Shown here: piece after piece, positions 20,952-21,358 of the stretch
How the letters are laid out: each line of letters starts with the position of its first letter
Numbering within the stretch: position 1 is the first letter of the stretch
From: Girardia tigrina
Taxonomy: Eukaryota
DNA: 52,876 nucleotides
Reading direction: 5' to 3'
Assembly: GCA_001938485.1 (NCBI GenBank)
Contig: MQRK01252338.1
Location: forward strand, 1 to 52,876
Translations under genes and position numbers: made by a program
Notes under the pieces: generated by a model
Told to the model about the DNA's origin: nothing
Seen by the model: only the letters and a program-made list of their open reading frames with translations
Databases searched by the model: none

Positions 20952-21358
20952 CAGGGATCAACTGTGCGGCCAGTGGGCATACTTCTACGTAGCATCCCTG
21001 AGTAACTAGAGATCTCGATATCTAGGCTAAAGTGTCCAAGAGCTAGCCGATTATTGCGGAACAGCCGGCAATATATCGTATTCAGGAATGGGCCAGCAAT
21101 CCATTCACTAGGCTACGCTTTATAATCTGGGTGTGAAGGCTGTGGGTAGTAGTGACCCCGCTGTCGGTGGTTGGATTGCATCTTCATGATCTGGGATGAA
21201 TCAATCCCGGGAAGGATGTTGTAATGACGTCGTTGTATTTTCGAACAGGCAGAACTAAGGCATGGATCCCAACATTGGGGGAGTGCCCGTTGAGAACCAT
21301 CAGCGTCCCAGGCCTCCTAAAAGCCTCAGGTTTAATACCGTTAAAGGAGTAGAAGTGC
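20952..21358 (+). mobile_element. Short non-coding retroposon headed by an HDV-like ribozyme (copy B, 407 bp)
   Basis: Perfect 12-bp direct repeats ACACAGCACAGC at 20940-20951 and 21359-21370 (TSD). GC-rich; head homologous to copy A up to TGGGCCWGCAATCCA. Confidence 0.85.
20953..21037 (+). ncRNA. HDV-like self-cleaving ribozyme (partly degenerate P3/P1.1)
   Basis: P1 AGGGAT(20953-58)/ATCCCT(20994-99); P2 GGGCAT/GTGTCC; P3 ACT/AGC around L3 TCTACGT; P4 CTAGA.../...TCTAG; G-C-TAAA with the catalytic C at 21027. Shows compensatory or pairing-preserving changes relative to copy A. Confidence 0.8.

Follow-up and report, generated by a model that had tools for sequence, protein, structure and literature searches.

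An HDV-like head on a short mobile element

The stretch of Girardia tigrina DNA analysed here (contig MQRK01252338.1, positions 1 to 52,876, hereafter the window) contains a motif resembling HDV ribozymes, which raises the question whether this motif serves the host or belongs to a mobile element, and whether this copy can still be expected to cleave. The reading we favour, with a probability of about 85%, is that the 87-base motif forms the 5' end of a TSD-flanked, ORF-less element of 407 bp, is predicted to cut itself before C20952, and has its RNA likely copied by a zinc-finger RTE-like LINE. The element was delimited by its copies, its fixed ends and the lack of a long ORF:

20940-20951, forward: left TSD, 12 bp, identical to 21359-21370
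20952-21358, forward: whole non-autonomous element, family B, 407 bp
21090-21102, forward: 5'UTR motif common to family A and three LINE families, by sequence comparison
21310-21358, forward: 3' end, homologous to that of the zinc-finger LINE, without poly(A) or repeat tail (score 38)
21359-21370, forward: right TSD, 12 bp, identical to 20940-20951

A search of the genome (1.43 Gb, AT-rich, same assembly as the window) gave 1869 first-look candidates for family B, the 40 scored being 94-100% identical over 385-407 bases. Both ends fall at the same place in the 30 loci compared, which are the nearest copies and diverge by 1.0-3.8% from the majority; the copies sampled are top matches and first-listed matches, not random ones. 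The motif is the head of one of many young TSD-flanked copies. Contigs from small shares of sequencing runs also show related copies, with a boundary at 20952 in one run, although such contigs cannot show 5' ends, expression or cleavage.

The longest ATG frame in the element is 42 aa, the element ends in neither poly(A) nor a repeat, and its body shows no unusual degree of structure (z -0.3 to -1.2). A simple pattern found no pol III A or B box in the element and the head has no Rfam match, which speaks against a classical SINE with a tRNA, 7SL or 5S head.

The surroundings hold other features. Right behind the element, at 21371-22002, lies a mariner-like relic with inverted terminal repeats at about 21379-21415 and 21966-22002, and a mariner transposase fragment (Pfam HTH_48) is found at 52434-52763. 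On the minus strand, 18500-19740 carries broken frames of a hydrophobic, possibly tetraspanin-like protein, including a 171-aa piece without a Pfam match. The window further contains a 363-bp tandem duplication (20052-20709), an inverted repeat with perfect 118-bp arms and a 493-bp spacer (27866-28594) and a long hairpin with weak miRNA-family scores (40992-41103).

Copy A and related families

A second HDV-like motif in the window, copy A, also heads a short element:

17779-18085, forward: copy A, 307-bp family A element, with TSD at 17769-17778 and 18086-18095, by copies and TSD

Forty of 1325 family A candidates were scored in the same genome. Judged by its other body and other 3' end, copy A is the head of a different family and no sister copy of the 20952 element. 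Family A J1/2 (17787-17801 in the window) forms a 5-bp hairpin whose arms resemble both P2 strands of LINE2, and the family A head may be chimeric. We also observed a longer non-coding family of about 1.1-1.7 kb (L271, L274, L280, L281 and L292-L319, at 28S junctions), which has a G1.U37 HDV-like head and a long J1/2 that in some copies presumably carries an 18S-like piece. The body of this family is also that of subfamily E, indicating that ribozyme heads have been swapped.

The fold and its P1 register

A 28-base core pattern has 1470 exact matches genome-wide and none for the reversed control, hence the HDV-like motif at 20952 is not a chance match. A descriptor scan of the window returned three candidates, namely copy A (17779), the motif at 20952 and an AT-rich match at 42436 that we take as chance; an Rfam scan of the window gave no ribozyme match, at 20952-21038 or elsewhere. 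The earlier note had recognised the same fold at 20953-21037. That fold stands, while its limits and register do not, as the motif starts at 20952, P2 ends at 21038 and P1 had been read one base off. Helix numbering and the L3 consensus follow the HDV literature:

20952-21038, forward: predicted HDV-like ribozyme, 87 bases, at the 5' end of the family B element
20952-20958, forward: P1 5' strand, with predicted cleavage 5' of C20952
20959-20973, forward: J1/2, its 3' part predicted by folding to extend P2, and resembling the 28S target in alignment
20974-20980, forward: P2 5' strand (five of the seven P2 pairs show double-sided change)
20981-20993, forward: P3-L3-P3', with private T20993C giving A.C, by copy comparison
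20994-21002, forward: P1 3' strand (20994-21000) and P1.1 3' strand AG (21001-21002), by alignment
21006-21025, forward: P4 hairpin with two private changes (21018, 21020), by copy comparison and folding
21026-21031, forward: J4/2 with predicted catalytic C21027 (C kept in 38 of 39 family B copies)
21032-21038, forward: P2 3' strand, by pairing and covariation

The P1 pairing of AGGGAT with ATCCCT proposed before is correct, and extends to 7 bp through C20952-G21000 (C1-G37). With a 7-bp P1, P1.1 becomes C20985-G21002 plus a compensatory U20986-A21001, so the damage to P1.1 described earlier was a register error and the helix is intact. In an alignment of 38 copies (eight subfamilies with at most seven copies each, eight doubtful parses having been dropped, six and then two), P1.1 pairing is complete (100%) in the 7-bp register and includes 16 double-sided changes, as against 72.4% paired and no double-sided change in the 6-bp register. 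Under the latter, cleavage would fall before A20953, P1.1 would be damaged and the leading C would have been added at insertion. A 6-bp P1 does give family A a canonical G.U first pair, and the head of another LINE at the 28S site (L272/L273) is likewise best read with 6 bp, but it leaves a C.A mismatch in 21 of the 38 aligned copies, across whole young subfamilies, and the added base would have to be C or T according to family, be missing from the LINE and in every case be complementary to G37. We consider the 6-bp register very unlikely.

The element junctions agree with the 7-bp P1. The comparison covered 137 parsed ribozymes, of which 110 head short elements and 27 head LINEs (L086, which has no upstream sequence, was dropped). 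TSDs are present in 56 of the 74 short copies with a detectable 3' end and were not found in the other 18; where defined, the TSD adjoins the first base of the 7-bp P1 without a gap in 43 of 56 copies, the remaining 13 having 1-11 extra bases at the 5' junction. At this first position 24 of 25 non-A copies have C and 15 of 18 A copies have T; it faces G throughout, and the base at -1 varies, whereas the LINE copies used as a control start with a purine (25/26). The first pair is C1-G37 in 63 of 72 non-A short copies and U.G in 19 of 27 A copies. The second P1.1 pair (22-38) is U-A (61) or C-G (69) in 130 of the 137 copies; the core search pattern fixed a pyrimidine and a purine at these positions, not their pairing. 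The catalytic C is kept in 131/137. Across the alignment, 96.9% of 907 cells in P1, P2, P3, P1.1 and P4 are paired, and the 20952 copy has the conserved C and A of J4/2 and the U...CG of L3.

What the short elements lack is the purine, usually G, at +1 that is the norm for HDV-like ribozymes. A 5' purine is stated to be a requirement of HDV ribozymes (excerpts of PMC11331408); cleavage at C1 has been shown for L1Tc and SIDER ribozymes (excerpts of PMC3185411 and PMC4035085), and a pyrimidine at +1 therefore does not bar membership of the HDV-like class. The literature searched holds no precedent for the U1.G37 of family A, and excerpts of PMC9901934 have nothing on the +1 pair. From the modelled fold, the family B head is likely to cleave itself.

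A different origin for the precise 5' end would be an internal promoter starting at +1, as Pr77 does in L1Tc, with an HDV fold that shields the RNA and, having a pyrimidine at +1, cleaves poorly. Pyrimidines at +1 are atypical for transcription starts, which speaks against this, as do the near-universal retention of the catalytic C and P1.1 and the failure to find a pol III A or B box. On the other side, the 5'UTR motif is conserved across families, the transcription start of L1Tc coincides with its cleavage site (excerpts of PMC3185411), and HDV folds have been proposed to stabilise templates whether or not they cleave (excerpts of PMC11331408). We regard an internal promoter as unlikely and retain self-cleavage as the likely source of the 5' end.

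J1/2 and an extended P2

Both window copies carry CTG...CAG in J1/2, as described in the earlier note, but its interpretation as a conserved hairpin is not supported, as there is no double-sided change and the predicted probability is low. The CTG...CAG is near-invariant with loops of 6-10 bases, and its three pairs never compensate in any subfamily. Instead, the fold predicts a pairing that reaches beyond the previously noted end of the motif:

21043-21049, forward: predicted to pair with 20967-20973 as an extension of P2 (probability 0.85 when P2 is forced)

Under the same constraint the J1/2 hairpin in the 20952 copy has a probability of 0.01. Family means for hairpin against extended P2 are 0.06 and 0.65 in family B and 0.16 and 0.16 in family A, while subfamily E, without a downstream partner for the extended P2, gives 0.62 for the hairpin. 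These values are predictions of an energy model without the pseudoknot; unconstrained folds with flanking sequence and a first constrained fold were uninformative because nested folding cannot hold a pseudoknot. Cleavage of the Agam-2 ribozyme is accelerated by a P1.2 helix and likewise by an extended P2 (excerpts of PMC4908430), making either the hairpin or the extended P2 plausible in kind. For the 20952 element an extended P2 in place of the J1/2 hairpin is predicted.

Selection on the source, decay of the copy

The differences that the earlier note listed between copy A and the 20952 copy are present in the sequence: an inner P3 pair goes from C-G to U-A, a P2 pair from A-U to G.U, and the base stem of P4 is kept while its loop differs. 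That these reflect selection on structure, as was proposed, is supported by the 38-row alignment, in which covariation persists: both sides have changed in 9 of 24 pairs, a level reached in 0 of 500 column shuffles. As the shuffle control takes no account of relatedness, a compensatory pair may in each case go back to one event; at seven positions the compensatory change is common to at least two copies.

Private substitutions amount to 2.0% in the ribozyme and 1.7% in the body of family B (P=0.26), and to 1.3% and 1.5%, respectively, in family A (P=0.44). As ribozyme and body are equally rich in private changes, selection acts on mobile source elements, and inserted copies decay evenly. Could the host nevertheless have kept the 20952 copy as a functional ribozyme? 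The 28 core sites do carry fewer private changes than the body, a marginal difference (0.83% against 1.7%, P=0.06), but the ribozyme as a whole decays like the body, the copy is one of many young TSD-flanked ones with private damage in P3 and P4, and no host gene was identified nearby on the plus strand. Retention by the host is in our view most improbable.

The 20952 copy differs from the family majority at 12 positions (3%), three of them in the ribozyme. The damage to the first P3 pair noted earlier is real, being an A.C caused by T20993C, private to this copy among 39 of family B. C21020A adds a private G.A mismatch that breaks a P4 pair (predicted -2.6 against -8.4 kcal/mol). Private damage to the ribozyme is limited to these two pairs, and P1, P1.1, P2 and C21027 are intact. 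All five LINE2 copies have U.U at the first P3 pair, suggesting that a mismatch there need not be fatal. With one P3 and one P4 mismatch, the 20952 ribozyme is probably slower than its source and is not proven dead. On its pattern of substitutions, the copy is a neutrally decaying insertion with weakened P3 and P4.

A zinc-finger LINE as partner

Family B has no ORF, and a partner was sought by APE-domain search, which gave LINEs with a related ribozyme at the 5' end. The partner LINE is about 3.86 kb long, with a single ORF of 1241 aa that comprises an N-terminal APE, an RT and C-terminal C2H2 fingers; no Pfam match to RNase H was found at E<=0.1. Its ribozyme begins with G1.U37, has the 7+2+3 spacing of the short elements, and reaches E=0.18 and 32.9 bits against the Rfam HDV-type model, below the gathering score of 50. 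A 13-base 5'UTR motif is common to the LINE, family A and family B. At the other end, the last 60 bases of the LINE and of family B align with a score of 38, a comparison in which none of 178 internal LINE windows exceeds 20 (shuffle p 5e-4), while the likeness of the family A 3' end to LINE1 is not significant (p=0.13). About 200 bases in the middle of family B have no BLAST match to the LINE1 or LINE2 copies compared, and family B is thus not a plain internal deletion of the LINE. Like known bipartite derivatives, family B has no ORF, is flanked by TSDs and has 5' and 3' parts in common with an autonomous LINE. At one locus (L091) a short element, a LINE and two further short elements stand in an array, with a single 11-bp TSD between each. 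The window itself holds a piece of the partner lineage, followed by Penelope-like GIY-YIG codons (ORF 41709-42053):

41407-41744, forward: 5'-truncated 3' end of the partner LINE lineage, 85-88% identical to LINE 3' ends

We infer that the partner LINE is RTE-like. A single ORF with APE and RT and without RNase H is the mark of the RTE clade, and in a quick tree of 35 rows without named references the RT falls together with two zinc-finger proteins of other origin (SH-aLRT 98), the next-best homologues carrying DUF6451. The short-repeat 3' tail of RTEs is missing, the 3' end of the LINE joining the TSD directly, and in place of the restriction-like endonuclease typical of R2 and NeSL the LINE has an APE. 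In the Atlas RT cluster, half of the 54 members have C2H2 fingers, and a strict descriptor found no HDV-like head in 80 distant metagenome RTE-like loci.

Two other partners were considered and rejected. An Ingi or Vingi element, suggested by the C1, does not agree with the RTE-like homologues and the missing RNase H match; Ingi elements have RNase H and Vingi elements do not (PMC13708176). A second RTE-like APE-RT family in the genome has no similarity to the short elements and shares no ends with them. The ribozyme core, 5'UTR motif, 3' end and target GTG-N11/AC (the slash marking the nick) held in common indicate that the zinc-finger LINE likely drives the mobility of family B.

Target motif and the 28S site

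The target lies upstream of the TSD:

20926-20939, forward: host target motif, G-14 T-13 G-12 ... T-1, from site strings

Among 49 site strings, G-14 is present in 44, T-13 in 36, G-12 in 44, a pyrimidine at -1 in 49, A+1 in 49 and C+2 in 42, against a background of 1.9% for both G's (-14, -12); these strings include repeated Penelope sites and tandem junctions and hence are not all independent. TSDs are mostly 10-13 bp long. The repeated sequences that fit the motif best are Penelope GIY-YIG codons and one 28S site. Strict aiming at Penelope is unsupported, since every one of the 33 A copies sampled, and 21 of the 39 B copies, is found at other sites, most of which have the same motif. Two Penelope-like GIY-YIG endonuclease fragments occur in the window, at 11216-11587 and 51576-51869.

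At the 28S site, LINEs and short elements are stacked at one nucleotide, in tandem, with single TSDs between them. The assembly has 22 upstream junctions, and none of the 20 readable ones continues into 28S: nine lead into B- or E-type short elements, five into LINE kin, four into a third family, and two are unassigned. Downstream, 1 of 28 junctions is uninterrupted, and that one is degenerate. The assembly seemingly has no intact rDNA, and these counts give no occupancy. The zinc-finger LINE kin inserted at the 28S base are only 27-45% identical to LINE1; family A is found there too (L317). Most dispersed copies sit at other sites, so the 28S preference is relaxed. No rDNA-targeting RTE-clade element was found in the literature searched, which excluded Repbase and many subscription papers.

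Directly after the 28S TSD, L272/L273 (G000 C48176, C54634) represent a third LINE family. P4 is minimal in its HDV-like head, and the last five bases of the 28S TSD serve as the P1 5' strand, either as in R2 or by junction annealing. In L292-L319 two types of 28S sequence follow the site, differing just after the probe and possibly representing two rDNA families. At L303, the insertion base of the 28S site forms the junction with a stretch that we take to resemble the 3' part of 18S rRNA.

For the mechanism we propose that read-through RNA from rDNA or host genes would fold and cleave before +1, and that the LINE protein would bind the 3' ~50 nt of the freed short-element RNA. With its zinc fingers reading GTG, the LINE would nick at Y/AC, 12-14 bases downstream of GTG, and start target-primed reverse transcription, a second nick 10-13 bases on giving rise to the TSD.

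Was the head captured from 28S?

In a post hoc test, run after the likeness had been seen, the 22-base head of family B scores 21 against 28S at the target, and none of 310 further windows of 28S scores above 14 (shuffle p 3e-4); the linker alone gives p 0.013. One family C copy has 12 bases identical to the 28S target. Exact 28S-like 12-base heads have only two matches genome-wide, the heads of family A and of the LINE agree with the 28S target over no more than 5-6 bases, and a portion of the family B linker is also found in the LINE2 head, which counts against a 28S origin. The family B head may nonetheless derive from the 28S target site. In R2 ribozymes, 28S sequence is used or captured as P1, and a duplicated target can end up as the new 5' end and so move the site of cleavage (excerpts of PMC3774820); earwig R2 has downstream 28S sequence at its 5' end (same source). 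Capture of 28S sequence is shown for R2 (PMC3774820) and is a hypothesis for the short elements here.

It is a tentative, rather doubtful proposition that a C2H2-finger RTE-like LINE evolved one-nucleotide 28S targeting through the upstream GTG and that short parasites captured 28S as their P1 strand and linker. If true, capture would have shifted cleavage to the C1-G37 or U1.G37 register, and allowed a spread to look-alike sites, more than a thousand in number and with Penelope nuclease codons among them. The 28S preference by itself is in our view likely, more so than the capture.

Comparison with known systems

With the corrected fold, a ribozyme that seemed broken becomes a natural mutational series, in which eight subfamilies pit pyrimidine-first HDV ribozymes against their own G1.U37 parent where the standard view wants a 5' purine. 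The locus also points to an APE-type single-ORF LINE with a target motif at fixed spacing, a favoured 28S site and ready-made templates of 300-400 bases. R2, Vingi and RTE proteins are under development for gene insertion, RTE and Vingi inserting at dispersed sites (PMC13708176).

Close counterparts are NARTc, RIME and SIDER with the L1Tc/ingi (Pr77) ribozyme, which like family B are short and non-autonomous, with an HDV-like head at the first base, C+1 and TSDs (excerpts of PMC3185411 and PMC4035085). From the L1Tc/ingi systems, as described in the same excerpts, the present one differs in a partner without an RNase H match, a two-pair P1.1 and an animal host. As the partner LINE begins with G1.U37, the pyrimidine at +1 is here peculiar to the short elements.

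Drosophila R2 SIDEs and R2/R1 hybrid SIDEs combine a ribozyme head with the 3' end of an autonomous element and sit in 28S, like the elements here, and swapping of heads and bodies is common to them and family E (excerpts of PMC3414825). In contrast to R2 SIDEs, as that text presents them, the partner here is APE-type and RTE-like, the 28S site is another one, specificity is relaxed and over a thousand cores are dispersed.

ORF-less derivatives of bipartite build have been described for RTE, Ingi, Vingi and R2 (excerpts of PMC5786205). Those of RTE have both a 5' part and the 3' end in common with a single-ORF APE-RT LINE, as seen here, and for RTEs 5' ribozymes are listed and an upstream target motif lies about one helical turn from the nick, again as here (excerpts of PMC5786205 and PMC6007223). 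The elements here depart from the RTE derivatives of these excerpts in having no microsatellite tail, GTG instead of a T stretch, a partner with C-terminal C2H2 fingers and a middle that is not LINE-derived.

Planarian NeSL elements target 28S (excerpts of PMC4640811 and PMC5035012). One of them, LIN9_SM of Schmidtea mediterranea, targets the same short 28S stretch, its 3' junction lying three bases upstream of the site used here and in the opposite orientation (PMC4640811). Ribozyme-headed non-autonomous elements are thus already known, and the present ones are a variant that combines a pyrimidine-first register with a partner favouring 28S.
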